Shown piece after piece: positions 2,040 through 31,619 of a stretch of 32,000 bases of DNA. The notes beneath the pieces were generated by a model. The model did not search any database and had not been told where the DNA came from. It was given only the letters and a program-made list of their open reading frames with translations. The DNA is taken from contig JAISKJ010000003.1 in NCBI GenBank assembly GCA_031260975.1, positions 629,109-661,108 of the forward strand, written 5' to 3'. Positions within the stretch are counted from its first letter, which is position 1. Every line of letters starts with the position of its first letter. This DNA is from Christensenellaceae bacterium (GTDB taxonomy: Bacteria > Bacillota > Clostridia > Christensenellales > UBA1242). Position numbers and translations under genes: made by a program.

Positions 2040-5000
2040 TTACTTAATTTCAGGCCCGTTCTCTTCAACGTCAGCGTCTGCCTTAGCTTCTTTTGTCTTG
2101 GCAACTGTAGTCTTTTTGGCACCGGTACCGCTGGAAGTTACTCCTGCTTTTGCCGGCTGTCCTTTAACCTTTCCGCCTCTGATGAAGTATATAATTACGC
2201 CAGCCAAAATCAAGAGAGAAATAACAATAAGAATGGTTCCCAGAACTTCATTTGAAATTCCGCTGGTGCTGCCCTCCACCAAAACGGTGATAGAACGGCT
2301 GAATGTTGCGGTGTTTCCTGCCATGTCAGTGCTGGTTACAGTAAGAGTATATCTTCCTGCCTTGTTAAGCGTCCAAGTATATATCTCGCTGTTGTCACCC
2401 GTTTGAGTAGCCTCCACTCTCACGCCGCTTTCATCTGTCAGAGCAATAGTGTTAACCTTAAGCTTGGGGTCCGGGTTGGTGTCATCATCATCATTTGAAG
2501 CCCTGTCAATGTTGTCGGTAATCAAAAAGTCTGCAAGTGTGTTTATCGAGATAGTTCCGCCGATGGTTATGGTTTCTTTAACTTCCTTTCCTTCAACAAA
2601 TTCAATTACCGGAGGAATAGTGTCACCCACGGTGATTTGTATAGTCTTGGAGTCTGCAGAGTTGCCGTTGAGGTCTTTTGCAGTATATGTTACCGTATAA
2701 GCGCCTCTTCTCGTGGGAGTAAACCAATACTCATTAGCAGTAGTGTCATTTGTATCAAAAATAAGGTTGGTCTTTGAAAGAGCTATCAGTTCAGAACCGC
2801 TCATCGTGCTGCCGTCAACTTCTTTAAGACTATAAGTTCTGTCAGGTCCTACAACCTTAGCCTCACCCGTACTTCTAAGTCCGTCCAACTCATAAGGAAG
2901 GTCGCTCTGGTCATAAGTGATAAACAACGGAACAGAAATTCTTCCATAAAGTGAAGCATCACTTACGTTGGCAAAGAAAATCTGAATAGCGTCAGTCATA
3001 GCGTCACGACCGTCTGTTCTAAGCTCCAAAATAGGCTTACGTGTGTCAACAACTCTTATACTAGCATCCTTAGTGGTCTCATAACCTGCATCATCTATAA
3101 CTGAATATCTTATAGTATAAGTTCCTATGTTTTCGGGAGTAAATATAGTCCCGCTTACAAGGCTTGCATTTTCAACGCAAGTAATTTGTATTCTGTCTGA
3201 AATATCTCCGGGACTTCCACCCACATCATTGTCATGAGCAGTAACATTTCCAAGGTCTTTTCTTGTTCCAAGCTCCATTTCAACCACAGTGCTTGACACT
3301 CCGCTGAGTGTCGGGGGCTCGGTGTCGGTCAACTGCTTGATTTGATAAGTGATTGAACTGAAGTTGTTGCCTACGTCAACCGCGGTATAAGTTACAGTAT
3401 ATTTTTCGGCAAAGTTAGGTGTAAAACTAATACCGGGGTGCTGATATTGATATTTGCGTCCGTTGACGTCTGCTGCAACCTCTGTTCTTACGATTTGACC
3501 AAGGGTTTGATACCCTGTTACAACATTCCCTCTTTCATCTCTCACAGTCACAGCTATTCTCAGTGATGGGTCGTTGTCAAAGAATGTCACACCGCTTACA
3601 TAAAGAGGTGCACCTTGTTCATAGGTGTTGGCGGCTCCCGGTCCGGTTACCCCATCAAAAGCCGAGTCATTTCCGTTGGCTACTGTTACAACAGGCCTTA
3701 CTATGTCATTAGTGTTTTTAACAGATATATTTTTCTTTTGTTCAGTAACATTTCCATAGTCATCGGTAGCTTTGGTCACAATAGTAATCATATCACCGTT
3801 GCCCGGAAGCGTCGCAAGTTCATATATAGTGTTTATGCTGTCAAGTGATAGGTCGTCGCTTTTGAAACTAAGCATAGCGCTGTTATCTTCATCTTCACCG
3901 ATAAAGTATATAGCGTCGCCAATGTTACCACTGCCGTTCAGAGTGATATAATATTGAGTTCTGATATTGGTGTCATAGTTGTCGGTTACGGTAGGTTTTG
4001 TAAATCTATATGTCTTTCCGTCTTCAATAAGTGTAGGAAGGTCAACCGGATATGTTACGGTCGGACCAACACTGTCAACCAAAACATCCTTAATGCTGAA
4101 AGTGAATGTCCAGCTTGCGCTGTAACCGTTTCCGTCACTTACTCTATATGTTACGGTATAGTCACCCGCAACGGTTATTTTTCCGCCCGGTCCTATAGTA
4201 ATTGTAGCTAATTCAGCTGCTCTCTTCTGAGCAGTGTCAGCTCCCGCACTGTGATATATTGCGTCCTGCAGGTCTATTTCAGTAAATCCGGCAACAGTTG
4301 AGGTAATTCTTCGGGTAAACGTCAGATTTTCAAAAGGTACAACAGTGTCTTCACCATAGATTGCCGGAAAAGATATCTGTATCATGTTAAGCCCATAAGT
4401 TGTCGGAACCATCCACTTAGCGTCAGCTCTGTTGATAGTGTCAGCGATTGTAGTGGGATCAGCCGTAAGCTCGGCAGAATAATCCTCAACCACAAAGAGC
4501 TTTGGCGCCATGGTGTCTCTTACATTTTCAATGCTGAAAGGCTCTACTTCGGCTTCGTTTCCATAGAAGTCTCTAACCTTATAAGTTATTTTGTATTCAC
4601 CGTTTTGTTCAGGTATGAAGTAATAACCGTCGTCATCTTTCAAAATCGGAAGAGGTGCACTCAAAGTACTTGCATCAACACGATGCTGAACTGTTATCAA
4701 AGTGTGTACGTTAATAGTTGCGTTTGCATCGTTTTTATTGAAAGCCGAAGCCAACGGAAGTCTTACTTTCTCTTTCAGGCTGGCGCTTGTTGCAAGACCG
4801 CTTACAGTAAAACCAATGTCAAATGTCTTTTTATAAACAGTGCTTCCTACAACAGTCTTGTTAAGGGTAGAAATAACTGCACCATTAAACAGCACTGCGT
4901 ATCTTATAATGTTTGTTCCGGCATCAGGCGTAAACTTGTAGTTTCCGCTGCCGTTGTCAGGAAGCTGCACACCGCTGCTGTTGTCAGAAGAAAGTCTCTG

Positions 5001-5711
5001 GGTGTTAATAACTTCAATCCTAAGCCCATATCCCTGAGCATTGGGATTTGTTGAAAAGTCTATAACATCTCCATTTGCGTCTTTTACAATAGGATTTGGT
5101 ATAACCACATCTACAACGCCGCTGACCGATCCGCCCAACACATTGATGGGAAGAATGATATTGTCATTAGTATCGCCGGGGTTGTTGCCGGGAATCTCAA
5201 TCGTAACCTCTTCGCCCACAACATTTATAATAAAAGTCTGGCTGGTGGTTGAATATTCGTTGGCACCGGGCGTAACATAACCAAAGCCTTCGTTGAGGTC
5301 ATAAGAATATACAACAGTATATCTGTCAGCAGATGTTGGAGTAAACTTAAATCCGTTGCTGGTGTCACTGTCATAAGGTATAACTCTGCCGCTGCTGTCT
5401 TTTATGGTAGGCTTAACATTGGGATTAACGACAAAAACATTAGGCACCACACCGGCATCGGCCAGCGTACCTTTTGGCAACGTAATAATATGCCCTACCT
5501 TGCTCTGAGTAGGAATAGGATCCATAGAAGTATCAACTGATATGATTGCACCCGTCGCTGTCTTATCTCCTACACCGGGAGCTGTAAAAACTGAATAGCT
5601 CCTTGTCTGATAGAACTGCTCTGTTAAACCGCCGATAGGTGGGGCTACTAACGCTCCTCCCATGACGAGTACTAAACTTGATGCAGCCACAATTCTATGA
5701 AATTTTTTCAT
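2040..5711 (-). CDS. large cell-surface protein with tandem Ig-like (HYR/DUF5011-like) domains, an N-terminal signal peptide and a C-terminal TM anchor
   Basis: AGGAG RBS and signal peptide MKKFHRIVAASSLVLVMGGALVAPP. The strand motif Y(T/K)(V/I)TY..D..GN recurs at least 8 times (GEYKITYKVRDFYGNEAE, GDYTVTYRVSDGNGYSAS, EKYTVTYTAVDVGNNFSS, GTYTIRYSVIDDAGYETT, GAYTVTYTAKDLNGNSAD, GRYTLTVTSTDMAGNTAT). Module starts look like DTEPPTL, DTRKPIL, DTIPPVI, DTMAPKL, DSVGPTV. The C-terminus has a helix ILIVISLLILAGVIIYFI followed by a charged tail. No LPXTG motif. Confidence 0.85.
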   Translation of the reverse strand: MKKFHRIVAASSLVLVMGGALVAPPIGGLTEQFYQTRSYSVFTAPGVGDKTATGAIISVDTSMDPIPTQSKVGHIITLPKGTLADAGVVPNVFVVNPNVKPTIKDSSGRVIPYDSDTSNGFKFTPTSADRYTVVYSYDLNEGFGYVTPGANEYSTTSQTFIINVVGEEVTIEIPGNNPGDTNDNIILPINVLGGSVSGVVDVVIPNPIVKDANGDVIDFSTNPNAQGYGLRIEVINTQRLSSDNSSGVQLPDNGSGNYKFTPDAGTNIIRYAVLFNGAVISTLNKTVVGSTVYKKTFDIGFTVSGLATSASLKEKVRLPLASAFNKNDANATINVHTLITVQHRVDASTLSAPLPILKDDDGYYFIPEQNGEYKITYKVRDFYGNEAEVEPFSIENVRDTMAPKLFVVEDYSAELTADPTTIADTINRADAKWMVPTTYGLNMIQISFPAIYGEDTVVPFENLTFTRRITSTVAGFTEIDLQDAIYHSAGADTAQKRAAELATITIGPGGKITVAGDYTVTYRVSDGNGYSASWTFTFSIKDVLVDSVGPTVTYPVDLPTLIEDGKTYRFTKPTVTDNYDTNIRTQYYITLNGSGNIGDAIYFIGEDEDNSAMLSFKSDDLSLDSINTIYELATLPGNGDMITIVTKATDDYGNVTEQKKNISVKNTNDIVRPVVTVANGNDSAFDGVTGPGAANTYEQGAPLYVSGVTFFDNDPSLRIAVTVRDERGNVVTGYQTLGQIVRTEVAADVNGRKYQYQHPGISFTPNFAEKYTVTYTAVDVGNNFSSITYQIKQLTDTEPPTLSGVSSTVVEMELGTRKDLGNVTAHDNDVGGSPGDISDRIQITCVENASLVSGTIFTPENIGTYTIRYSVIDDAGYETTKDASIRVVDTRKPILELRTDGRDAMTDAIQIFFANVSDASLYGRISVPLFITYDQSDLPYELDGLRSTGEAKVVGPDRTYSLKEVDGSTMSGSELIALSKTNLIFDTNDTTANEYWFTPTRRGAYTVTYTAKDLNGNSADSKTIQITVGDTIPPVIEFVEGKEVKETITIGGTISINTLADFLITDNIDRASNDDDDTNPDPKLKVNTIALTDESGVRVEATQTGDNSEIYTWTLNKAGRYTLTVTSTDMAGNTATFSRSITVLVEGSTSGISNEVLGTILIVISLLILAGVIIYFIRGGKVKGQPAKAGVTSSGTGAKKTTVAKTKEAKADADVEENGPEIK

Positions 5712-17000: not shown

Positions 17001-18587
17001 TTACATTTCCCTTCCCATATCTTGTTGCGGAACGGTTTCAAACTTCATTTTTTCAAGCTCTTCATTGCTTAGCTCAATAACCTTGCCGCCAATGGGCGAA
17101 AAATTAGCCTGACCGCCAAACACCAGCCACATAACACCGTCTGCTTTGGTTTTTTGTTTATGGCTTGACCTGCCGTCCAGCTGCCCGTCAGTAAACACTA
17201 TCTTATTTGTGCGGCACTTTGGGTTTGGAGTAAATGCCGTGGCTGCTGCTTCAAAGTTGGTGCCGTCATCATCCCTTGTTGCACGAAATTCCTCAACCTG
17301 CTTTTTTGAGGTTAATTCCTGAAATCCGTGAAAATTTCCGCCGAAACACCCCACTTTTATGTCAGTTTCCTTAAACATAGGCACAAGCTGCAACAAAAAG
17401 CCGCGCAGCAATGTGTCACTGATGCTGCCGCTGGTGTCAAGCACTACCTCAGTTGTTGCTCTTCCTTCAACTTCAACATCGTCTACACGCACATTCGGAT
17501 TATACTTTGACGAACGCCTGTAGACCCATCGCTCTTCCTGCTCTTCAACAGCCTTTACCAAAAGCCGCTTCCATGAAAGCACGGGCTTCACATATTTGGG
17601 GTCTTTTATTCCGGCGGTTTCAAAAATGCCGGCAAACGCTGCCTTTGTTCTGACTTTTGTTTCTTCATCGCGCTGAATTTCATTTCGCTCAAACTCGCGG
17701 GCTTCGTCAACAGGCCTAGTTATTTCCTTCTTTTCCTGACGCTGCTCAGATTTACTCTCGTCCAGATTTTTTTCATTGGGCTTTCTGTTTTTCATTATTC
17801 TGTTAAGCAGGTCTTTTATGCCCTCGGCTTTCCCGCTGTCCTTCTGCTCTTTTTCAGGCTCATTCCAAATATCATGGTCGTCAAAGCCCTCATAATTTTC
17901 AAGGTCTATATCATCAAGTCCGCCGCCGATTTTTTCATCGTCTTGTTCAGACTTTTCCGGCTGACCTTCTTGCTTATCCTGATTTTGCGGTTGACTTTTG
18001 TCCTGCGGCTGATTTTGCTGTTGATTTTGAGTTTTTTGGTCCTGCCCTTGCTCGCCGGTTTGTGGACTGCCCTCTTTGTTTTGCTGACACTGTTTTTCTT
18101 CCTGCTGTTTTTGTTGCTTTTTTACAAGCTTGTCATAAATCGCTTCGGCGTTTCGATATAACCCGTCAGCAATATCCACATGTCCGCTCATAAGCGGCTT
18201 GCCATCGTCGCCCATCACAGGATTACCATTTCTGTCAAGCACAGGTTTGGGCTTGGGAGGTTCCAATCCGTCTCTTTTTAAAAAGGCGTTAATGCAGGCA
18301 TCGGTCGCTATATTCCAAAGCTTCTGATGCTCCTTATCATTGCCTCGCTGAACATGGTTAAAAGCGATATGACATATCTCATGAGCAAAAACGAAGTCCT
18401 TTTCGTCATCCGAAAGCTCAGCAAAAAAATCTGGATTATAAACTATCTCCTTGCCGTTTGTGCCTGCGGTTTTAATGTCCTTGCTTGCAATGACATTAAC
18501 ATCAAAAATTTTAGCACCAAACGAGGGATATTTCTCCAGCACCCTTTCTTTTATCTCTTCAATTTCATTTCTTTGTTTTGTCGGCAC
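17001..18587 (-). CDS. DUF2201-type protein: N-terminal HExxH metallopeptidase-like domain, Gln/Glu/Lys-rich linker, C-terminal VWA-like domain
   Basis: GTG start at 18587 with a GAGG RBS. HEICHIAFNH...LWNIATDACIN matches the metallopeptidase-like motif pattern. The linker reads QQKQQEEKQCQQNKEG...QNQQQNQPQDKSQPQNQDKQ. The C-terminal MIDAS-like VVLDTSGSIS...GTNFEAA...FTDGQ is VWA-like. Confidence 0.8.
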   Translation of the reverse strand: MPTKQRNEIEEIKERVLEKYPSFGAKIFDVNVIASKDIKTAGTNGKEIVYNPDFFAELSDDEKDFVFAHEICHIAFNHVQRGNDKEHQKLWNIATDACINAFLKRDGLEPPKPKPVLDRNGNPVMGDDGKPLMSGHVDIADGLYRNAEAIYDKLVKKQQKQQEEKQCQQNKEGSPQTGEQGQDQKTQNQQQNQPQDKSQPQNQDKQEGQPEKSEQDDEKIGGGLDDIDLENYEGFDDHDIWNEPEKEQKDSGKAEGIKDLLNRIMKNRKPNEKNLDESKSEQRQEKKEITRPVDEAREFERNEIQRDEETKVRTKAAFAGIFETAGIKDPKYVKPVLSWKRLLVKAVEEQEERWVYRRSSKYNPNVRVDDVEVEGRATTEVVLDTSGSISDTLLRGFLLQLVPMFKETDIKVGCFGGNFHGFQELTSKKQVEEFRATRDDDGTNFEAAATAFTPNPKCRTNKIVFTDGQLDGRSSHKQKTKADGVMWLVFGGQANFSPIGGKVIELSNEELEKMKFETVPQQDMGREM

Positions 18588-18598
18588 TTTTTACCTCA

Positions 18599-18997
18599 CT
18601 AAATTTTTATGTAAGTCAAAAATCTGCTCAGCTTTGGGTTTATTTTTCTGCCCGTGCTGCTGCTTGTCAAAATAATGCAACAGTTGTCGGGCAGTTTGGC
18701 GTTTGAAATTGTGCGATACTTTACAATTTCTAAAAATCTCTCCTGCTCCTCTTCGCTAAGCCTGTCAATATCCTCAAAAACCAGCAGATTAACTTGTTCA
18801 TTCTTTTTTTCTAAAACTGCATTGTACCAACTTGGAAAAACCGCCCCATTCCTTCCCATAAACACGGCAAACTCGGTTTTGGGGGCGTTAGCCTCAACTA
18901 CAACTGAATTTTTAAACTGCTTTGAATCAAAGCCCTCGAGCCACAAAGGCGTAAGGTTATCTTTTATATACTCTTTTACCGTTTTAAACTTATCCAT
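18599..18997 (-). CDS. small hypothetical protein resembling an AAA+ core that lacks a Walker A lysine
   Basis: 132 aa. The ATG overlaps the stop of the upstream ATPase gene (TAATG at 18995-18999). LLVFEDIDRLSEEEQERFLEIV...CCIILTSS resembles Walker B plus sensor-1 spacing. VFMGRNGAV occupies the P-loop position without GK(S/T). Confidence 0.6.
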   Translation of the reverse strand: MDKFKTVKEYIKDNLTPLWLEGFDSKQFKNSVVVEANAPKTEFAVFMGRNGAVFPSWYNAVLEKKNEQVNLLVFEDIDRLSEEEQERFLEIVKYRTISNAKLPDNCCIILTSSSTGRKINPKLSRFLTYIKI

Positions 18998-20910
18998 TAC
19001 TGTTCAACCCCCTTATTAAGGTCTAAGGTTTTATCAGTTTGAGTGCCCATCCTTCCGTATTCAATCGAATTATATACCGCATACATCTCTTCGCCGAGCT
19101 CATCCTTAATAAACTTCTTCACTATGTTCTTATCATCTTTGGAGGTGTTTAGAAGCGAACCTAAAACAAACATTTGGTCAGAAATGTTTTCCATGGGTAT
19201 ATGCTCATAATCCTTTTTCTTAATATCCTCAACGGTTATTTGCGGGCGCGAAACAAACTCACAAAGGCTGGAAGCAACATCCTTGCCCACCATGTCGGAT
19301 ATTCTGTCCTGACTGATTTTGCCGCGCTTTTCGGCCTTATACAAAACCTCCGAAACCTTTTCCCACTTTCGCGGGTCCAGCGTAGGCTTATGGTCACCTG
19401 CCTCGTCATCATATCCACTATAAAGCACTTCAGTGTTGCCCATCACAAATGCCGAAACCAGCGGATGAATTTTTGTCTGTCCGCTGCCGTCAGACTTCAT
19501 CTCATATCCCCACTCTATCCACGAATGTGTGTCCAGCGGAATTTCTATATGCGAATCAAACCTTCTAAACAGCGGTGCCGGCATGTTATAGGCCGCTGTA
19601 GACTCTTCCTTGCTGTTTCCGGCAGCAATCACCACGGCATTGTCGGGGAGCTCCCAAAGGTTTGGACGCACAGTGCGATTAAGCACAATATCATAAACCA
19701 TGCTCTGGGTTGTTTCTTTGACATTGGTCAGCTCATCAATAAACAAAGCCTGCTTTCTGTTAGGTTCTTTTTTACACTTTTCACAAAGCAGCGTATACCA
19801 ATAAGGCGGATAAATCATTCCGGGGTCGCCGTTTGGCTCCTTGCCTCCCACTACCTCCTCGGGCATCATGCCGTTTCTGAGCACAATGCTGGTATAGGTG
19901 GGGTCAAGCTCATAAACCCTTCGTGATTTTCCCACGCCCGACAGACCATGCAGCATCATGCTGCACCCGTCCTCAAAGTTTTCCAGCATCCTCTCTTTTA
20001 TGCTTGCCGAGCGCGTGATTTCAAAAGCCCCCTTTCGTTTGGAGTCCCGAGTCGCTCCGTTTTGAGGTGCAGCAGTGTTTTGAACAGCGCTTTTTTGAGG
20101 GGTTATATCCTTTGCAAAATGGTTGTTTAAATATGCTCCTCCGTCAGACTTATCCAAGTTTCCGTCATAGGTGCCGCTGTTGTTCATCTGAATACCCGCA
20201 TACATAGCGTTTTCGGCCACAGCCCATTCCTTGTTGGTTTTTTTGTCTTTCAGAATTAAAAAAGTTACCGGTTCCACTTTTACCCAGTATTCTTTGCCTT
20301 CTTCAAATTTTGCTCCGCCGGCCAGCTTATTTTGGTCGCCGCTGTCATATGTCAAAGCCTTGACTTTCACATACTTCTGACCGTCCAGAATATATTCCTC
20401 CAGCTCTCTCGGGCTGAATTTTTGTTTATAATATTTTTCTTCGTATTTTGTCGGTACTGAATCTACCGTATACTTCTTACCCGTCTTATTTTTGCCGCCC
20501 CCCAACACACTGTTGAGCCTTTTTTCAAGGTCAGAGCCGGGCTCAACCGCTGTCTGCGGATATTCAAGGTTTGATTTATAAGTAGGAACCCCTTCTGCGT
20601 TTTTCCCCCTCACTCCGTTCGGGGAGATTGTCAGGATGTCAGAGAACAGCGAAGCTGGACGTGCCGCGGGTCTCCTACTGTATGAGTAATACCAATTTCT
20701 AGTTGCGTCGGTGTAGACGGTAATGACATAATCATTATTATGCTTAGAGGCAGACCACCAAACGGAACGACCGTTTGCGGAACTTATATATACACCCAAA
20801 AGTTTGGCAAAGTCAGAGGCTCTGCAAGCTGCCCATTTGCTGGCCGGAGGGTCAAAATCCTCCCAGATTTGAGCCTCAGTGGGAAAGGTCCATTTAACAG
20901 TTGCAGCCAT
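18997..20910 (-). CDS. DGR target protein: N-terminal variable DUF1566/C-type-lectin-like module fused to a MoxR/AAA_5-like AAA+ ATPase
   Basis: GGAGGAG RBS and ATG at 20910. Residues 7-88 (WTFPTEAQIWEDF...GRSVWWSASKHNNDYVITVYTDATRNWYYSYSRRPAARPA) fit the W.(L/F)PT...(Y/W)WS(S/A)...(V/A)R(C/P)(V/A) pattern. Walker A LHGLSGVGKS, Walker B ALFIDELTN, sensor-1 VVIAAGNS and PLFRRFD are present. No signal peptide or TM helix. Confidence 0.85.
   Translation of the reverse strand: MAATVKWTFPTEAQIWEDFDPPASKWAACRASDFAKLLGVYISSANGRSVWWSASKHNNDYVITVYTDATRNWYYSYSRRPAARPASLFSDILTISPNGVRGKNAEGVPTYKSNLEYPQTAVEPGSDLEKRLNSVLGGGKNKTGKKYTVDSVPTKYEEKYYKQKFSPRELEEYILDGQKYVKVKALTYDSGDQNKLAGGAKFEEGKEYWVKVEPVTFLILKDKKTNKEWAVAENAMYAGIQMNNSGTYDGNLDKSDGGAYLNNHFAKDITPQKSAVQNTAAPQNGATRDSKRKGAFEITRSASIKERMLENFEDGCSMMLHGLSGVGKSRRVYELDPTYTSIVLRNGMMPEEVVGGKEPNGDPGMIYPPYWYTLLCEKCKKEPNRKQALFIDELTNVKETTQSMVYDIVLNRTVRPNLWELPDNAVVIAAGNSKEESTAAYNMPAPLFRRFDSHIEIPLDTHSWIEWGYEMKSDGSGQTKIHPLVSAFVMGNTEVLYSGYDDEAGDHKPTLDPRKWEKVSEVLYKAEKRGKISQDRISDMVGKDVASSLCEFVSRPQITVEDIKKKDYEHIPMENISDQMFVLGSLLNTSKDDKNIVKKFIKDELGEEMYAVYNSIEYGRMGTQTDKTLDLNKGVEQ
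20649..20770 (-). repeat. DGR variable repeat (VR), codons 47-88 of the target gene
   Basis: 122 nt aligned without gaps to 22291-22412, 110 of 122 identical. There are 12 mismatches, 11 of them where the TR has A on the minus (sense) strand. Confidence 0.9.
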
Positions 20911-21009: not shown

Positions 21010-22041
21010 TTACTTTTTTGTTTTTTCTGTTTCTACAGCACGTTTCAGCCTCACGCTTTCGTTGCTGTGCTTGAGATGAGCGCTAAAGGCGTTTTTTCGC
21101 ACTTCAATATAATCATCATCCACAATGTTTTTGGCTCTCAGCTTTAAAAGTGTTTGCAAGTGACGCTTAAGCCTTACCCTTGCCGAACCGCGCAATTTTA
21201 TTATAACCTTGCCCGTTTGGGTCAGATAATGCCTGAACCCCAAAAAGTCTATGCCGTTTTGAACTCTGCCTATCTGCGTTTTGCGGTTTAAAAAAAGCTT
21301 TAGGCTTTGTTCACAAACCTCCTTTATCCGCTTCAAGCAATAATGCAGATATTTTTTGTCACGGTGAATAAGGATAAAGTCATCCATATATCGCACGTAC
21401 CCCTTAATATGAAGCTCCTCCTTAACAAGCCTGTCGATGGGGTCAAGATATAACAGTGCAAACCATTGGCTGGTTTGGTTCCCCAGAGGCAAACCTACTC
21501 CGGTGTAGTTTGGCTGCTCTTTAATCAGCTTTTGAATAAACCACATTTCGTCTGCGCCAAAGCCGCATTTCTTAAGCTTTTCTAAAAGTATATCATGATT
21601 GATGCTCTGAAAATATTTTGAAATGTCACACTTAAGATAATAAATCTTATTATCCCCTCCCCGAAAAAACTCCTGCTTCAAAAATTGTTTGAGCCGCTGC
21701 ATACCAAAATGCGTGCCCTTGTTTTTGCGGCAGGCAGCGTTGTCGTATATCAATCTTTTTTCAAGTCTTGAAAGCAGCGAATTTAAACAAAAACACATCA
21801 TAACTACCCTGTCTTTATAACTAGGCGCCTCAATCAGTCTTTCTTTGGGGTCATATATCTTAAACTCTTTATAGCCTCCAAAGCCAAACTTTTTGCTGAC
21901 TAATTCCTTTTCTAATGCGGCCAAAGTTATGCCGAGCGTGGTTTCAAAACGCACAACCTCTCCTTTGTGTTGCTTGGCTCTTCGGCACCGCTTGTGAGCC
22001 TCATACAAATTTTCAAAACAAAAAATTTCATTTAAGTTCAT
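21010..22041 (-). CDS. DGR reverse transcriptase
   Basis: RT motifs include LPLGNQTSQWFALLYL (the LGxxxSQ signature typical of DGR RTs) and YMDDFILI. I prefer the ATG at 22041 (MNLNEIF...), preceded by GAGGGA, over the GTG at 22053. The TR lies upstream. Confidence 0.9.
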   Translation of the reverse strand: MNLNEIFCFENLYEAHKRCRRAKQHKGEVVRFETTLGITLAALEKELVSKKFGFGGYKEFKIYDPKERLIEAPSYKDRVVMMCFCLNSLLSRLEKRLIYDNAACRKNKGTHFGMQRLKQFLKQEFFRGGDNKIYYLKCDISKYFQSINHDILLEKLKKCGFGADEMWFIQKLIKEQPNYTGVGLPLGNQTSQWFALLYLDPIDRLVKEELHIKGYVRYMDDFILIHRDKKYLHYCLKRIKEVCEQSLKLFLNRKTQIGRVQNGIDFLGFRHYLTQTGKVIIKLRGSARVRLKRHLQTLLKLRAKNIVDDDYIEVRKNAFSAHLKHSNESVRLKRAVETEKTKK

Positions 22042-22053
22042 TTTATCCCTCAC

Positions 22054-22290
22054 GCTTTGACTGCATTAAAAGAACGCCCCCTTAAACTTATAAAGCACAG
22101 GCCGGGCCCGGCATTATTTGTGTGGGCGCTCAATTTCTTCCACCGACACTCGGCGTTTTAGAGTTAATCCAAAAACCATTAGCGGTCAGAAAAGAGAAAA
22201 ATTCCTTCGCTTTAAGGCACGGATGTATTTTGCTTAAAATACACTTATCTGGCCTGTTTTCTAAATCCGCTCAAAACGGTTTCTTCAAAA
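22054..22290 (-). ncRNA. DGR spacer region between TR and RT (expected part of the TR-containing template RNA)
   Basis: Non-coding 237 nt directly 3' of the TR on the minus strand. In the characterised Bordetella phage DGR, the spacer downstream of the TR is part of the functional RNA and supplies the priming site. The function here is inferred from position only. Confidence 0.5.
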
Positions 22291-22412
22291 GCGAATCTGG
22301 ACGTGCCGCGGGTTTCCTATTGTTTGATTAATTCCAATTTCTATTTGCGTCGGTGTTGACGGTTCTGACATTATCATTATTATTCTTAGAGGCAGACCAC
22401 CAAACGGAACGA
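22291..22412 (-). repeat. DGR template repeat (TR)
   Basis: Non-coding copy of the VR. The sense strand is rich in AAY codons (AAT AAT AAT GAT AAT ... AAC ... AAT ... AAT TAA TCA AAC AAT AGG AAA) and contains an in-frame TAA. The 3' end is GC-rich and shared with the VR (CCCGCGGCACGTCCAG). Confidence 0.9.
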
Positions 22413-22455: not shown

Positions 22456-23043
22456 CTAAAATCCATTTCTATTTTTCTTCCATCTCTGGTCGTCACTTCT
22501 CTTCCATGCCGCAATCAAGTTGATAGCCTCCCCTGTCTGGACAGAAATCTGTTTATACTGCTTTGGCAAAATGCAGCCTGCGCTCTCAGCCACCATGGCA
22601 ACATACCCAAGCATTTTAAGCCTGATGATTGCTTCTTTTTGCAAGTTCTCACGCTCTTTCTTGTTCTCCCCACTGTCCATCCTCAAAAAGTTTGCCCGCA
22701 ACAAGTCTTGTAAGGCTTCAAGCACAAAATTCTGCATCCGGTTCACAAACACTCCGCGGAATTTTGCAGGAGACCTTTGAGTAACCAAAATTATATAAGC
22801 TCCAAGCTTTTTAATGACAGTTATCACAATAAGGTCACTGCTCTCAGCAGGGATTTTACAAACGCTTTCCCATTCACGGTCGCGCCAAGAGGCATCTTTT
22901 TGCGCCTGAGTTTTGTCAAATCTTTGGCCCCTGGCCATAGCCGCAGCATGACCTATTGACACTTCATCTTGAATGCTGTTGATTTTGCCCTCAGCGTCAT
23001 CAACAGTTTTCGGTATCCTTAAACTCTTATCGCGGTCATGCAT
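22456..23043 (-). CDS. avd: Avd-like accessory variability determinant (four-helix-bundle protein) with an N-terminal extension
   Basis: I prefer the ATG at 23043, preceded by GAGAGGGA; the GTG at 23064 falls at or upstream of the predicted transcription start. The C-terminal 130 aa (YIILVTQRSPAKFRGVFVNRMQNFVLEALQDLLRANFL...RLKMLGYVAMVAESAGCILPKQYKQISVQTGEAINLIAAWKRS) fits the Avd helical pattern. The gene lies immediately 5' of the TR. Confidence 0.75.
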   Translation of the reverse strand: MHDRDKSLRIPKTVDDAEGKINSIQDEVSIGHAAAMARGQRFDKTQAQKDASWRDREWESVCKIPAESSDLIVITVIKKLGAYIILVTQRSPAKFRGVFVNRMQNFVLEALQDLLRANFLRMDSGENKKERENLQKEAIIRLKMLGYVAMVAESAGCILPKQYKQISVQTGEAINLIAAWKRSDDQRWKKNRNGF

Positions 23044-23069
23044 TAAATCCCTCTCTTTTGTCACGGCCT

Positions 23070-28811: not shown

Positions 28812-31619
28812 CTATTGATTTTTGACATACTTATTATTTCGTATATCAAAGGCTTCTTTGCCACCTTCCAATATACCACACGCTTGTTGCTGGATACCAG
28901 TTTGATTTAATGTTCCTTTAATTGTTGTTCGTTTATCGTCGTATCGTGGTTCGTTATTTTCAATCGCACCAGAGCGATATTCAAATGTTTTTAGATTATT
29001 AGGTGCGTCTACACCTTGATGATTTGCAATTATTATTTCTTCCGCATCGCAACCAATAGATATATTTGCATTATGAGTGATGAGAATAATTTGCCGTTGT
29101 TTTTTCTTATCTTTTATGAATTGAACCAAGTCATTGAATATTGACTTATTGTCAAGGTCATCTTCGGGTTGGTCTATCAAAATAGGGTTTGTGCTATCAT
29201 CTAATTCAATAAGCAATTTTAATAATAACAATGCTTTTTTACCTGGCGACATTTGATTTATTAAATCAGTATCACCAAGTGTTGCCCCATATGATATGTT
29301 AAAATAATCATCTAATACAACTTTCAAACCGTCTTCAACAGTATGCCCCGATTTTAAGGCTTTGTTACTTTTCAATAATGCAATAATAAATTCTTTCTTA
29401 TTGCCGTCATCAAAGTCAAAATTGGGGTTTAAAGAGTCATTTCTTATTATCTCTTCATCAATATTTTGTTGTTTTAGAAATGCTTTAATAAAAATTTCGC
29501 CAAATTTTATACAAAACTGTTCTGTTTTGTAGAAAACATTTGCATAAAACGACTTATTCGTATCTGTAAATATCTTCCCAAGTTTTGAAGCATATGTTTC
29601 GTTTTCAATCTTATATGCCCCCGACGATGAAATGAGTTTGTCAATCAACATATTCTTTTCATCATTTACAGTCTTCTGTTGTTTTAGTAATTCCTTAACT
29701 TTATTTAGTTTTTTTGTTTCGGTGTCTATTTGTTCAGTTAATTTCTTAATGGTTTCAGTAATTTCAATTTTAGGTGCTAATTCAGTTACACTCGTGCTTA
29801 ATTTAGTTTTTTCACTTAATTTTGTTTGAATATTAGTATTTATCTCGCTTAATATTTCTTGCTTTTTTATTTCCCATTTTTTGTCAACTTCTTTAATTTC
29901 AGCATTTGCTTCATCGTCCATTGAAGTCTTATATTTTGTTAGAAGATTTGATGGCAAGTATCCCTTTTGTAATAATGATTTAATACTTTCAATAGCGGTT
30001 TTATTATTATTTAATTCGTTCAATTCGTTTTCAAGAGTTAGCAACTTACTCTTATTCTCGGCAAAGTTTTTTATATCATCAACGGAGCAATTATTCTTTT
30101 GTGCAATCTCATCTCTTTGCGTCGTTAGTTTTTTAATTTGCTTTGTAATGGCATCTTCGTTCCCCAACTCTTCAATTTGTTGTTGTAAATCAGTAACAGT
30201 TTCTTCTTTGGATATTAAATCAGCAATATATCTATTTAGATTGTTTTTAATTTCACGCAACTTTTCTTTCAAATTGTCGCTTAGCCTTTTTATGTTTTCA
30301 TCACGCAAAATAATATTTTCAATAAGGTCATCAATTTCAGTTTTATTTTCTTGGTCATCTGTAAGCCTATTTAGATAAGTTTGCGGAATATATGTTATTT
30401 TTCGTTGTTTGTTCGGGATGTTATCATCTTTCCAATAGACAGAAAGTCCTTGAATTATATATGGTTTTGCTTTTGAAATTGTTTCATTTTTTTCATCAAT
30501 CTGTTTAGCGTCAATGTTGCGAGCAATGGCTCTTAAAAGGATTGACTTCCCAGAAGCACGACCACCAATAATGCAAGTTAAATTTTGATTAAAAACTATT
30601 TCTTCTTGTTGAAAATCGGGGTTATTGATAATTACTTTATCTATAAGTTGATAATCATTCTTTTGTTCAGGACGGTTTTCGCAAATACGCACTCTATCTT
30701 TTGGCTCATACATAACTTGTTTTAAGCCATTAAAAGTTGGGTCGGCTTTTATCCAACAATATCTCTTGGTATGGTTGCCCGTGCTGTCAAGTGGTTCAAA
30801 TATCGCATTATTGCTGTGTGCGTCGCAACCGTGCAAACAAGGTTTAAGAGAACCGCATTCGGTTAGGACGGTTTCTTTACTTACTTTTTCTTTTTCGCCT
30901 AAATAGTATTTGATAGAGCCGTCATCACTTGCCAATATAATATCAGCAAATTTTTTAAGTTCAACAGAAAGCGTAATAAGACGAGAAGCACTATTTTGTT
31001 TACTTCCATTTCCTATGGTTGAAATGCCAGCATTTGTTCCATTATCAATAGCAATAAGCGTGTTTTCTCGCAGTTCCTTATCTTTAAATAATTCAATTAG
31101 CGCCTCTGGCGTGATGATAAAATTTTCTATTCCTTTAACATATGCTTGATTATCAGTCAAACTTTTATCACTTTCTTTACCAAGAGAAATTAAATCTGCT
31201 TTACTACAAGATAGATTTCCTTTACCATTCGTGCGTGTCCAAATAAGTTTTGCAAAAAATTTGTTTTCTATTTTGTTAGCAAAAGCAGGATTAAATAAGC
31301 AATGAATGTTTATTGGTTCTTTACCTGTTGGGAACATTCTTAGTTCAATATTTGGAAATATAAATGGTATTTTATCATTCAATCTTGCGTCCCTTATAAC
31401 TTTGTTATAGTTATCAATAGAAAAGTAATCAGTTATGCCTAATCCTGCTATTGCTTTTTGTGGGTCTTTTCCGTCACCAATATAGGTTAAAATATCACTA
31501 TAAAATTTATCCCATTTTTCGATGGGGCTTTGTCCTTCAAAATTATCATTCATTTTGGTTTCAGGCGTGTGAATGTGAATATCCCAACGACGCCATTCAC
31601 TTCCTCTTGTGTATTCCAT
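28812..31619 (-). CDS. PHP-domain phosphoesterase fused to an SMC/Rad50-like ABC ATPase with a coiled-coil insert (Ppl-like defence candidate)
   Basis: The N-terminus has WDIHIHTP and later HGCDAHS (PHP metal-binding His motifs). Walker A IIGGRASGKS is at about aa 350. A Lys/Glu/Leu/Asn-rich coiled-coil region of about 250 aa follows. The C-terminus has MSPGKKALLLL (signature-like), Walker B ILIDQPEDDLD and ILITHN. Confidence 0.8.
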   Translation of the reverse strand: MEYTRGSEWRRWDIHIHTPETKMNDNFEGQSPIEKWDKFYSDILTYIGDGKDPQKAIAGLGITDYFSIDNYNKVIRDARLNDKIPFIFPNIELRMFPTGKEPINIHCLFNPAFANKIENKFFAKLIWTRTNGKGNLSCSKADLISLGKESDKSLTDNQAYVKGIENFIITPEALIELFKDKELRENTLIAIDNGTNAGISTIGNGSKQNSASRLITLSVELKKFADIILASDDGSIKYYLGEKEKVSKETVLTECGSLKPCLHGCDAHSNNAIFEPLDSTGNHTKRYCWIKADPTFNGLKQVMYEPKDRVRICENRPEQKNDYQLIDKVIINNPDFQQEEIVFNQNLTCIIGGRASGKSILLRAIARNIDAKQIDEKNETISKAKPYIIQGLSVYWKDDNIPNKQRKITYIPQTYLNRLTDDQENKTEIDDLIENIILRDENIKRLSDNLKEKLREIKNNLNRYIADLISKEETVTDLQQQIEELGNEDAITKQIKKLTTQRDEIAQKNNCSVDDIKNFAENKSKLLTLENELNELNNNKTAIESIKSLLQKGYLPSNLLTKYKTSMDDEANAEIKEVDKKWEIKKQEILSEINTNIQTKLSEKTKLSTSVTELAPKIEITETIKKLTEQIDTETKKLNKVKELLKQQKTVNDEKNMLIDKLISSSGAYKIENETYASKLGKIFTDTNKSFYANVFYKTEQFCIKFGEIFIKAFLKQQNIDEEIIRNDSLNPNFDFDDGNKKEFIIALLKSNKALKSGHTVEDGLKVVLDDYFNISYGATLGDTDLINQMSPGKKALLLLKLLIELDDSTNPILIDQPEDDLDNKSIFNDLVQFIKDKKKQRQIILITHNANISIGCDAEEIIIANHQGVDAPNNLKTFEYRSGAIENNEPRYDDKRTTIKGTLNQTGIQQQACGILEGGKEAFDIRNNKYVKNQ

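Follow-up and report, generated by a model that had tools for sequence, protein, structure and literature searches.

We found that the window, by which we mean the whole 32,000-nucleotide stretch of DNA analyzed here, from the genome of a gut Christensenellaceae bacterium, carries a complete, cell-encoded DGR whose target is a cytoplasmic-looking, 637-amino-acid multidomain protein. The variable repeat (VR) lies near the N terminus of this protein, in a module that resembles a DUF6273 (C-type-lectin-like) domain in circularly permuted form, and the module is followed by a MoxR-class AAA+ ATPase. DGR biology was founded on targets with a C-terminal VR, most of which are surface or virion proteins. 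We favor, with somewhat more confidence than doubt, the reading that the DGR programs the target as an intracellular ligand sensor, or as a substrate adaptor, for a MoxR-vWA-protease conflict module, where ligand, coupling, and role are what we infer from the domains and their relatives.

The evidence for the DGR starts with a 126-nt direct-repeat pair on the minus strand, formed by the template repeat (TR) at positions 22287-22412 and the VR at positions 20645-20770. The VR corresponds to target codons 48-88, within one codon of the original prediction (codons 47-88 of 637). In the 126-nt alignment, 11 of the 13 mismatches between TR and VR fall at TR adenines. After masking of the TR adenines to N, the resulting 115-nt pattern matched only the TR and the VR within the window (one mismatch in the VR; 0 matches expected from 100 shuffles), and this adenine-masked pattern retrieved no second VR in the window. 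The TR contains 11 AAY codons, and an in-frame TAA stands where the target has codon 75. Substituted target codons span 57-86 and the mutable TR adenines cover codons 56-86, yielding about 10^20 possible amino acid variants of the VR. The 3' end of the VR, CCCGCGGCACGTCCAG, is GC-rich, does not differ from the TR, and encodes the conserved motif P-A-A-R-P, features that point to an IMH-like element inside the coding sequence; this GC-rich stretch of 16 nt is the same in both repeats, which diverge after it. Downstream of the VR, the best hairpin or cruciform was not better than in shuffled sequence (z = 0.75).

The remaining DGR components are arranged in the order Avd-like open reading frame (ORF), TR, reverse transcriptase (RT), and target, as had been described before, and the gap of 99 nt between RT and target is real. 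The RT (21010..22053, minus strand; 347 amino acids) matches RVT_1 with an E value of 3e-17. It shares 52 to 57% identity with the RTs of homologous cassettes, which have adenine-biased TR/VR pairs of their own, and 34 to 42% with phage DGR RTs, of which that of gut phage nd12 is closest (40%) and those of Faecalibacterium phages reach 34 to 35%. The Avd-like accessory gene (22456..23064, minus strand) is a 202-amino-acid ORF with a GTG start. Its Avd-like portion is confined to the C-terminal ∼125 amino acids, and its true start is probably internal to the ORF. Residues 79-190 match bAvd PF22296 (E = 6.6e-4) and the NCBIfam model DivGenRetAVD (E = 3.3e-4) weakly, both far below the curated cutoffs, and the ORF is 50 to 71% identical to its counterpart in 15 homologous cassettes, which likewise precedes the TR; its position is conserved. 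The spacer between TR and RT (22054..22286, minus strand) is also conserved and aligns with those of seven cassettes from gut Alphaproteobacteria at a mean column identity of 69%. RNAalifold predicted 66 base pairs in this alignment, 26 of them with compensatory changes, suggesting that the spacer probably forms the structured 3' portion of the DGR RNA, a function proposed from the alignment. An Rfam scan returned three tRNAs only.

Cassettes of this type recur in 16 or more further genomes, most of them from gut Alphaproteobacteria. They are located directly upstream of the homologous target in the genomes of 15 GTDB species, while the RT lies ∼6.7 kb away in the 16th. Of the 16 genomes, 14 have a TR/VR pair with a strong adenine bias and a VR located at codons ∼47-96, and all 21 mismatches in a further clade fall at TR adenines (codons 78-115). 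Homologues that are almost identical vary nearly exclusively in the VR: in two clusters of sequences with at least 90% identity, 16 of 18 and 16 of 22 variable positions lie at about residues 61-84, that is, within the VR. This VR-restricted variation is evidence of diversification activity in the homologous cassettes. Given the TR/VR differences in the window, which holds one VR sequence, and the variation among relatives, the DGR of the window appears to be active as well. A single target was observed for it in the window.

The target gene (18997..20910, minus strand) is preceded by a GGAGGAG Shine-Dalgarno sequence and opens a three-gene operon that also includes a 132-amino-acid ORF and the gene for a DUF2201 protein. 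We retrieved 243 homologues of its product, for which AlphaFold2 (AF2) gave a model with a mean pLDDT of 80.4. The first ∼90 residues had been proposed to form the variable domain; the model instead shows residues 1-270 (20101..20910, minus strand) as one rigid module (pLDDT of 90.6, pTM of 0.88). We compared the module with bona fide DUF6273 repeats by profile-profile alignment with hhalign. The C-terminal half of DUF6273 aligned with amino acids 3-91, the half that bears the VR (probability of 98.6%, E = 6e-16), and the N-terminal half aligned with amino acids ∼108-270 (probability of 78%, E = 1.9e-5), in the other half of the module (amino acids ∼105-270), which carries an insertion of ∼85 amino acids. 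The halves are thus in the reverse of the DUF6273 (PF19789) topology, with the VR-bearing C-terminal half first and the N-terminal half second, and we read this swap as a circular permutation. The permuted domain puts its VR-bearing half first, and for this reason the VR would come to lie at the N terminus. Residues 84 and 85 (R84-P85, within the ARPA motif) form the conserved terminus of the element that bears the VR, as predicted; they are invariant in 34 homologues, and the motif aligns with the VRPAL end of DUF6273. The analogy drawn earlier with DUF1566-type domains and their VRCV ending is a loose one, as the detectable relative is DUF6273.

The N-terminal part of the window target gave no Pfam match, to DUF6273 or any other family, at E values up to 1, related ATPases reached 20.8 bits (under the 23.5-bit cutoff), and a profile search with amino acids 1-100 recovered DUF6273 proteins. 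A Foldseek search with the model of amino acids 1-290 against PDB and BFVD returned no significant neighbor, and no structural similarity to the solved C-type-lectin-like DGR targets Mtd, TvpA, and TaqVP was detected. The C-type-lectin-like fold can therefore not be claimed from structure. A sequence profile of the same residues matched PDB chains at chance level only, and in an hhalign comparison of the module with the nd12 tentaclin, the VR segment alone aligned at a low probability (8.5%). The module is present in 1,681 representative clusters, almost always at the N terminus, and the C-terminal domains that follow it vary among clusters (AAA, kinase, ankyrin, and LRR domains are examples), as one would expect if the module were a portable sensor.

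A disordered linker (amino acids 274-301; 20008..20091, minus strand; pLDDT below 50), whose length differs among homologues, separates the module from the MoxR-class AAA+ ATPase and its helical C-terminal region (amino acids 302-637; 18997..20007, minus strand). Both the Walker A (GLSGVGKS, residues 322-329) and the Walker B (D392-E393) motifs are intact and invariant among homologues, N432 is a candidate for sensor 1, and R449/R450 are conserved. Foldseek placed NorQ and CbbQ at the top (E = 6e-8, target-normalized TM scores of 0.60 to 0.66). Sequence matches were weaker, with a weak profile match to the MoxR-like 2r44 and a score of 16.2 bits for Pfam AAA_5 (E = 0.011) that does not reach the 22-bit cutoff. 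In no 19-residue segment of the target does the mean Kyte-Doolittle hydropathy rise above 0.79, and the N terminus is acidic, which by this crude test speaks against a transmembrane helix or signal peptide, in line with what had been predicted. The target is thus almost certainly cytoplasmic, as judged from its sequence, and together with the Walker motifs this supports the earlier description of an N-terminal VR on a cytoplasmic multidomain ATPase protein. That the diversified surface faces cytoplasmic ligands, maybe derived from phages, is plausible.

Two further proteins are encoded downstream. The start of the 132-amino-acid ORF (18599..18997, minus strand) overlaps the target stop codon. 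It has no P-loop, matches Sigma54_activ_2 weakly, is homologous to the Walker B/sensor region of the family ATPases, and is kept downstream of the target in many loci; from its sequence, it is a degenerate, AAA-like subunit without a P-loop. It is followed by a zincin metallopeptidase-vWA protein (17001..18587, minus strand) composed of DUF2201_N and DUF2201 (PF13203, E = 1.4e-27; PF09967, E = 6e-5), with a HEICH zincin motif, a Q/E/K-rich linker, and a vWA-like domain with a MIDAS-type DTSGS motif. This protein, two genes downstream of the target, is linked to it in most of 79 related loci.

Several features of this locus have precedents. The original prediction regarded the N-terminal VR and the RT-then-target order as departures from characterized DGRs, and yet both are typical of DUF6273/“Ig1” gut-phage DGRs: according to Roux 2021 (Supplementary Note 7), 17 of the 45 Ig1/Ig2 targets of Wu 2018 have an N-terminal VR, and phage nd12 encodes a tentaclin target in the same RT-then-target order as here. 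The tentaclins or “Ig1” proteins of phages nd4, nd12, FP_Toutatis, and FP_Brigit share with the window target the VR family W-x-x-S ... V ... RPA, the location of the VR in an N-terminal domain, and a target gene downstream of avd-TR-RT. They are, however, virion proteins with a complete, unpermuted DUF6273 domain (VR at amino acids ∼219-260 in nd12) followed by Ig-like domains, whereas the window encodes a chromosomal protein with a permuted domain, a VR at amino acids 48-88, a MoxR fusion, and a peptidase-vWA partner. Neither Ig-like nor Fn3 domains were detected in the window target, the C-terminal part of which is the AAA+ ATPase.

DGR targets that are cytoplasmic and coupled to NTPases, and also to MoxR-vWA systems, have already been described (Kaur et al. 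2020; Dore et al. 2024). The MoxR-vWA VMAP ternary systems reported in these studies combine a DGR-diversified C-type-lectin-like domain with MoxR and vWA, as here, and their targets were predicted to be cytoplasmic, with a proposed role as sensors. In those systems, found in multicellular cyanobacteria or Chromatiales, an FGE-sulfatase-type C-type-lectin-like domain lies at the C terminus of the vWA protein, MoxR is separate, and VMAP is present. Here, in gut anaerobes, a DUF6273-type domain lies at the N terminus of MoxR, the vWA protein carries a zincin peptidase, and no VMAP-like gene was seen. The same two-gene core of MoxR and a DUF2201_N/DUF2201 vWA partner occurs in group 2.2 jumbo phages, where a role in virion assembly was proposed for the pair (Iyer et al. 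2021), but without a DGR and without a variable N-terminal module on MoxR. Finally, UVR4/Midasin of Wu 2018 also joins a hypervariable domain and an AAA-type ATPase in one polypeptide; as the papers describe it, its variable region is C terminal, its VR class and RT clade differ, and no peptidase-vWA partner is described. In the literature that we searched, this architecture is not described and no paper pairs DUF2201 with a reverse transcriptase, which does not prove absence from the literature; the motif strings of the family are likewise absent from the searched parts of the Roux 2021 supplement. N-terminal VRs, the RT-then-target order, and cytoplasmic, NTPase-linked DGR targets are thus known already, while we found no report of a permuted DUF6273-type domain fused to a NorQ/CbbQ-like MoxR and followed by an AAA-like ORF and a DUF2201 protein.

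In the mechanism that we favor for the sensor or adaptor, the RT would copy the TR with adenine-specific errors into target codons 48-88, rewriting a loop-and-hairpin surface on the permuted DUF6273-type, C-lectin-like domain. The disordered linker would tether this variable module to the NorQ/CbbQ-like MoxR AAA+ ATPase, and the hypervariable module would bind a protein ligand in the cytoplasm, whose most plausible source is a phage or another invader. The MoxR ring could then couple through the vWA/MIDAS partner, as in NorQ-NorD, and either remodel the bound ligand, hand it to the peptidase, or activate the peptidase. The DGR-diversified C-type-lectin-like sensors already proposed in MoxR-vWA systems support this reading, as do some homologous cassettes that adjoin SNF2/ResIII or PglZ-like genes. 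Against it stand the absence of a Pfam match to DUF6273 in the window target and of a convincing hairpin after the VR, and also that PADLOC returned no model for target and partner beyond a marginal AAA match to DolB, that the flanks of most cassettes are housekeeping genes rather than defense islands, and that the phage MoxR and peptidase-vWA pair was proposed to serve virion assembly and not defense. A more far-reaching version, which we regard as tentative and on the whole doubtful, is an adaptive-like system of gut bacteria for recognition inside the cell, in which ∼10^20 surfaces of a permuted lectin-like domain carried by a MoxR motor would capture matching invader proteins and feed or switch on the vWA-tethered metalloprotease, with the retroelement also serving as a stochastic ON/OFF switch through the N-terminal VR and the TR stop codon.

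Among the alternatives, the one that survives best, although we consider it unlikely, is a chaperone-protease module derived from a phage or another mobile genetic element (for particle assembly, host takeover, or counterdefense), which the DGR would retarget to variable host proteins to the benefit of the mobile element. The RT lineage, closest to gut-phage DGRs, fits this origin, as does the occurrence of the MoxR and metallopeptidase-vWA pair, found by tblastn in many phages, including Atu_ph07. One group of homologous cassettes is located directly after a GpJ-like tail gene, one cassette has Bro-N and HTH genes nearby, and another a resolvase. The 6-kb cassette of the window, in contrast, has rpiA on one side and tRNA genes on the other; its surroundings show no sign of a phage, an integrase, or an att site, and no direct repeat of at least 12 nt that would indicate island integration at tRNA-Arg; most other cassettes have the housekeeping flanks noted above, and tblastn found no phage record covering the N-terminal module fused to the ATPase.

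A self-directed function seems slightly less probable still. Here, the module would bring proteins of the cell itself to the MoxR chaperone/protease and thereby diversify a regulatory or kin recognition phenotype. Precedents are the classical MoxR-vWA pairs NorQD and CbbQO, which mature host complexes, the DGR tuning of regulatory proteins proposed for cyanobacteria (PMC7517822), and kin recognition, which Dore et al. put forward as an alternative. The large number of variants (∼10^20) and the frequent null alleles, however, would fit an open-ended repertoire of targets better than one fixed host substrate. That the target is instead an extracellular, tentaclin-like binding protein, freed by lysis or an unrecognized route and with an incidental ATPase part, is highly improbable: the nearest described relatives of its VR domain are phage surface proteins, but the hydropathy test argues against a signal peptide or transmembrane helix, the AAA+ motifs are conserved and appear catalytically intact, the vWA partner is present, and Ig-like domains are absent.

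The target family would show a route to an N-terminal VR, the permutation of a DUF6273/C-type-lectin-like scaffold, which places the IMH-like element inside the coding sequence and within a strictly conserved motif. It would also extend the idea of a DGR-diversified cytoplasmic sensor beyond multicellular cyanobacteria and Chromatiales, to unicellular anaerobes that are common in the gut, and to a direct fusion of sensor and MoxR with a protease partner. As the operon is compact (three genes plus the DGR), the ligands of cytoplasmic DGR targets, and the consequences of their binding, would become experimentally approachable.

In some assemblies of relatives, a stop codon within the VR interrupts the target gene, which could suggest that the N-terminal module is a gene of its own or the last part of an ORF further upstream, an annotation or assembly artifact that we practically dismiss, since the ORF in the window is uninterrupted and preceded by a Shine-Dalgarno sequence of its own, dozens of homologues are full length and colinear, and the splits coincide with the TR-encoded stop codon, making them DGR products and not true gene boundaries. 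Misassembly or a frameshift of the target itself, which the original prediction had named as its alternative, was rejected because more than 30 homologues (∼35% identity) are colinear over 96 to 98% of its length. With the VR at the N terminus, a nonsense allele generated by the DGR eliminates the entire protein, and such alleles may add a phase-variation-like behavior to the system.

Every relevant gene of the cassette lies on the minus strand, and the order avd, template repeat (TR), reverse transcriptase (RT), target given by the original prediction is borne out by the ORF coordinates: an avd-like ORF (22456-23064), the 126-nt TR (22287-22412), a 233-nt spacer (22054-22286), the RT (21010-22053) and the 637-aa target ORF (18997-20910), separated from the RT by 99 nt that contain a GGAGGAG ribosome-binding site. 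A 132-aa ORF (18599-18997), whose start overlaps the target stop codon, and a 528-aa ORF (17001-18587) follow. The counterpart of the TR, the variable repeat (VR), lies at 20645-20770 inside the target ORF, and 11 of the 13 TR/VR mismatches are located at TR adenines. An adenine-masked TR pattern of 115 nt matched only two sites in the window, the TR and the VR, while 100 shuffles gave 0 matches. Given these results and the position of the VR at codons 48-88 of the target, the observation of an N-terminal VR is correct, although the interpretation attached to it is supported only in part. Read in the frame of the target, the TR contains 11 AAY codons, the classic design of diversity-generating retroelements (DGRs), and the computed amino-acid diversity reaches ~10^20. 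P-A-A-R-P is encoded by the GC-rich final 16 nt over which TR and VR are identical.

To see how far this architecture recurs, we searched 5.8 billion proteins and found 243 target homologues, many of them ~650 aa long and colinear with the query over 96-98%. A scan of GTDB species genomes yielded 79 loci, every one of them in an uncultured MAG from gut or rumen; most belong to Alphaproteobacteria and Clostridia. The avd-TR-RT block stands immediately upstream of the target in 15 of the 79; a 16th has an RT ~6.7 kb away on the upstream side, at the limit of the locus sequence. Of these 16 RT-bearing loci, 14 show TR/VR pairs with a strong adenine bias (the alignments of the other two, L018 and L029, are noisier), with the VR at target codons about 47-98. 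In a clade with a more canonical VR ("WLRS...LRPA"), all 21 of 21 mismatches fall at TR adenines, at codons 78-115, and the operon is the same. A DUF2201 gene is found downstream in most loci and a small AAA-like ORF in many; P0005, the closest of the full-length relatives, has the same three genes in an operon, but no RT was found near it. Full-length members of three clusters of at least 90% identity differ mainly in the VR: residues 61-84 hold 16 of 18 and 16 of 22 variable positions in two of them, and the third, more divergent overall, still varies most densely there. This concentration shows that the target family is undergoing diversification in nature.

The original prediction likened the "ARPA" motif that ends the variable domain to the end of DUF1566-type VRs. 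This likeness was not borne out. A profile-profile comparison with an alignment of 22 DUF6273 repeats matched aa 3-91 to the C-terminal half of that domain (FLLS..E, PT.YA, WWLRS, VR, VRPAL; probability 98.6%, E 6e-16). The N-terminal half of DUF6273 (VtFGsYPQ, ePIEWlVL, TWe.S.LR.WLN..F) matched the part of the module that follows the VR half and contains an ~85-residue insertion (probability 78%, E 1.9e-5). ARPA therefore corresponds to the canonical DUF6273 domain end, but the fold goes on past it here, and a permutation would be a testable explanation for the structural layout of the target. Modelled alone, aa 1-290 reached a pLDDT of 90.6 and a pTM of 0.88, suggesting that aa 1-270 behave as a single rigid unit. 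The proposed fold comparison gave no significant Foldseek neighbour in PDB or BFVD; sequence profiles of the module against PDB chains and Pfam on the module of the window protein also returned nothing.

A profile of aa 1-100 matched 1,681 clusters among 1.84 billion representative proteins at E ≤ 1e-3, nearly always at the extreme N terminus. It also picked up the C-terminal ~70 residues of every repeat in genuine multicopy DUF6273 proteins. In most clusters the same "middle" region comes next, followed by varied C termini that include AAA, protein kinase, ankyrin and LRR domains, most clusters having no Pfam annotation. The ~270-aa permuted module is N terminal in hundreds of clusters with unrelated C-terminal parts (proteins P0163-P0310; alignment A4), LRR_5, MORN and SH3 among them, and occurs twice in tandem in P0228 and P0258.

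In the full-length AF2 model, built with a 34-sequence alignment (mean pLDDT 80), a very confident block of aa 10-270 (pLDDT about 90-98) is followed by a disordered linker (aa 274-301), an α/β ATPase and helices. The Walker A (GLSGVGKS) and Walker B (DE) motifs are invariant across the family. The top structural matches of the ATPase half were the MoxR-class AAA+ proteins NorQ, also in complex with the vWA domain of NorD, and CbbQ (E 6e-8, TM 0.60-0.66 normalized to the target); matches by sequence were weak (AAA_5 under its cutoff, 2r44 at E 8e-4). The 132-aa ORF is similar to the Walker-B/sensor portion of an AAA core but has no P-loop. The 528-aa protein combines a DUF2201_N zincin peptidase (HEICH) with a DUF2201 vWA-like domain (DTSGS) via a long low-complexity Q/E/K/D-rich linker (about aa 160-330; window 17500-18100), whose length varies among homologues, as seen in split tblastn matches. 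Homologues P0002-P0004 contain two AAA domains each. Some Clostridia MAGs have three or four ATPase-family paralogues on separate contigs (MGBC144555, L030/L045/L058; Lapin-030 bin48, L047/L050/L059/L071; MGBC157798, L038/L053/L060), none with an adjacent DUF2201 gene by tblastn; in many of these loci the small AAA-like segment finds its match within the large gene.

The N-terminal VR and the RT-before-target order had been considered unusual. N-terminal VRs are indeed rare overall, but they are established for the DUF6273/"Ig1" class: Wu et al. include targets whose VR is internal or N terminal, and Roux et al. report 17 of 45 Ig1/Ig2 targets with an N-terminal VR followed by >250 aa. Baykov et al. 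named such N-terminal C-lec plus Ig proteins tentaclins. The RT of the window shares 40% identity with its counterpart in the tentaclin phage nd12, whose 579-aa target likewise lies just downstream of its RT, so gene order and VR placement are lineage traits rather than oddities. Cytoplasmic DGR targets with NTPases are known as well: DGR-linked MoxR-vWA systems have been described, with a proposed sensor role. The system combines a DUF6273-class DGR target with a MoxR-vWA module, both of known kinds and together widespread in gut bacteria; no description of a DUF6273-type variable module that is fused directly to a MoxR ATPase and paired with a peptidase-vWA protein was found in open-access text and parts of supplements.

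The adenine-mutagenesis signature, the architecture with its conservation and the VR-restricted variation are direct observations; the function of this DUF6273-MoxR-peptidase-vWA system is accessible to experiment. We lean, by a little over even chances, toward a reading in which the variable surface would bind cytoplasmic ligands, the MoxR ring and its vWA/MIDAS partner would interact as NorQ and NorD do, and proteolysis by the zincin domain, or remodelling, would be the outcome in a conflict context. A chaperone-protease serving a mobile element seems unlikely. MoxR and peptidase-vWA pairs occur in jumbo and other phages, with a proposed role in virion assembly, and one cassette group, which may be prophage-borne in its alphaproteobacterial lineage, has a GpJ-like tail gene immediately before it and SNF2 and ResIII/endonuclease genes after it (L003 1271-3505 and 12312-17891; also L005, L012 and L016). 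The window cassette (6 kb) is chromosomal: it sits between rpiA and a tRNA-Arg/Leu/His cluster, near genes for trigger factor, ClpP, ClpX, EngB, LspA, RluD and PyrF/E, and no integrase, phage genes or att-like repeat were found around it. An identical target protein is on record from a Christensenellaceae MAG. Flanks elsewhere vary by lineage, with housekeeping genes in most and a resolvase and PglZ-like gene in one. Self-directed regulatory or kin functions are rather improbable as well. An extracellular adhesin is highly improbable, as the predicted lack of a signal peptide or TM helix held in a hydropathy scan (highest 19-residue mean 0.79). An artefact can practically be dismissed.

The TR carries an in-frame TAA (22326-22328) at target codon 75 (20686-20688), where the window VR has TAC and open VR alleles are aromatic. 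A TR stop occurs at a similar position in 4 of 14 related cassettes analysed, and several genomes and independent metagenome assemblies retain it in the VR (TR/VR stop observations: L006, L007, L001, L078, L084 and L085), splitting the gene into an ~76-aa fragment and an ~549-aa ORF; many family cluster members from metagenomic gene calls are N-truncated in that way. Because the VR is N terminal, stop alleles remove the whole protein, and the DGR may thus act in addition as an ON/OFF switch for the system. The retained stop could instead be a consensus-assembly artefact, as a consensus built from a hypervariable population can come to resemble the TR.

Conservation extends to the TR-to-RT spacer, which aligns at a mean column identity of 69% between a Christensenellaceae genome and gut Alphaproteobacteria (window plus L001, L003, L006, L007, L009, L013 and L019). 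Its consensus structure shows compensatory changes in 26 of 66 pairs and it ends in a hairpin and T-run just before the RT start. The spacer probably forms a structured region of the DGR RNA.

Elsewhere in the window, a 1,223-aa protein (2040-5711, minus strand) with several bacterial Ig-like/PKD-type domains, presumably a surface protein, contains no VR copy by the masked-pattern search. About 5.7 kb from the cassette, beyond intervening tRNA and housekeeping genes, lies a candidate defence ATPase, a 935-aa AAA_21/SMC_N protein (28812-31619, minus strand) with a PADLOC match to Ppl (E 5e-21) and weaker ones to AriA and GajA. In two distant versions of the cassette, from a gut alphaproteobacterium (L003 5366-5806) and the genome encoding P0043 (L083 2794-3351), the avd-like gene is directly preceded by a YpsA/SLOG-family gene, possibly an additional accessory component.
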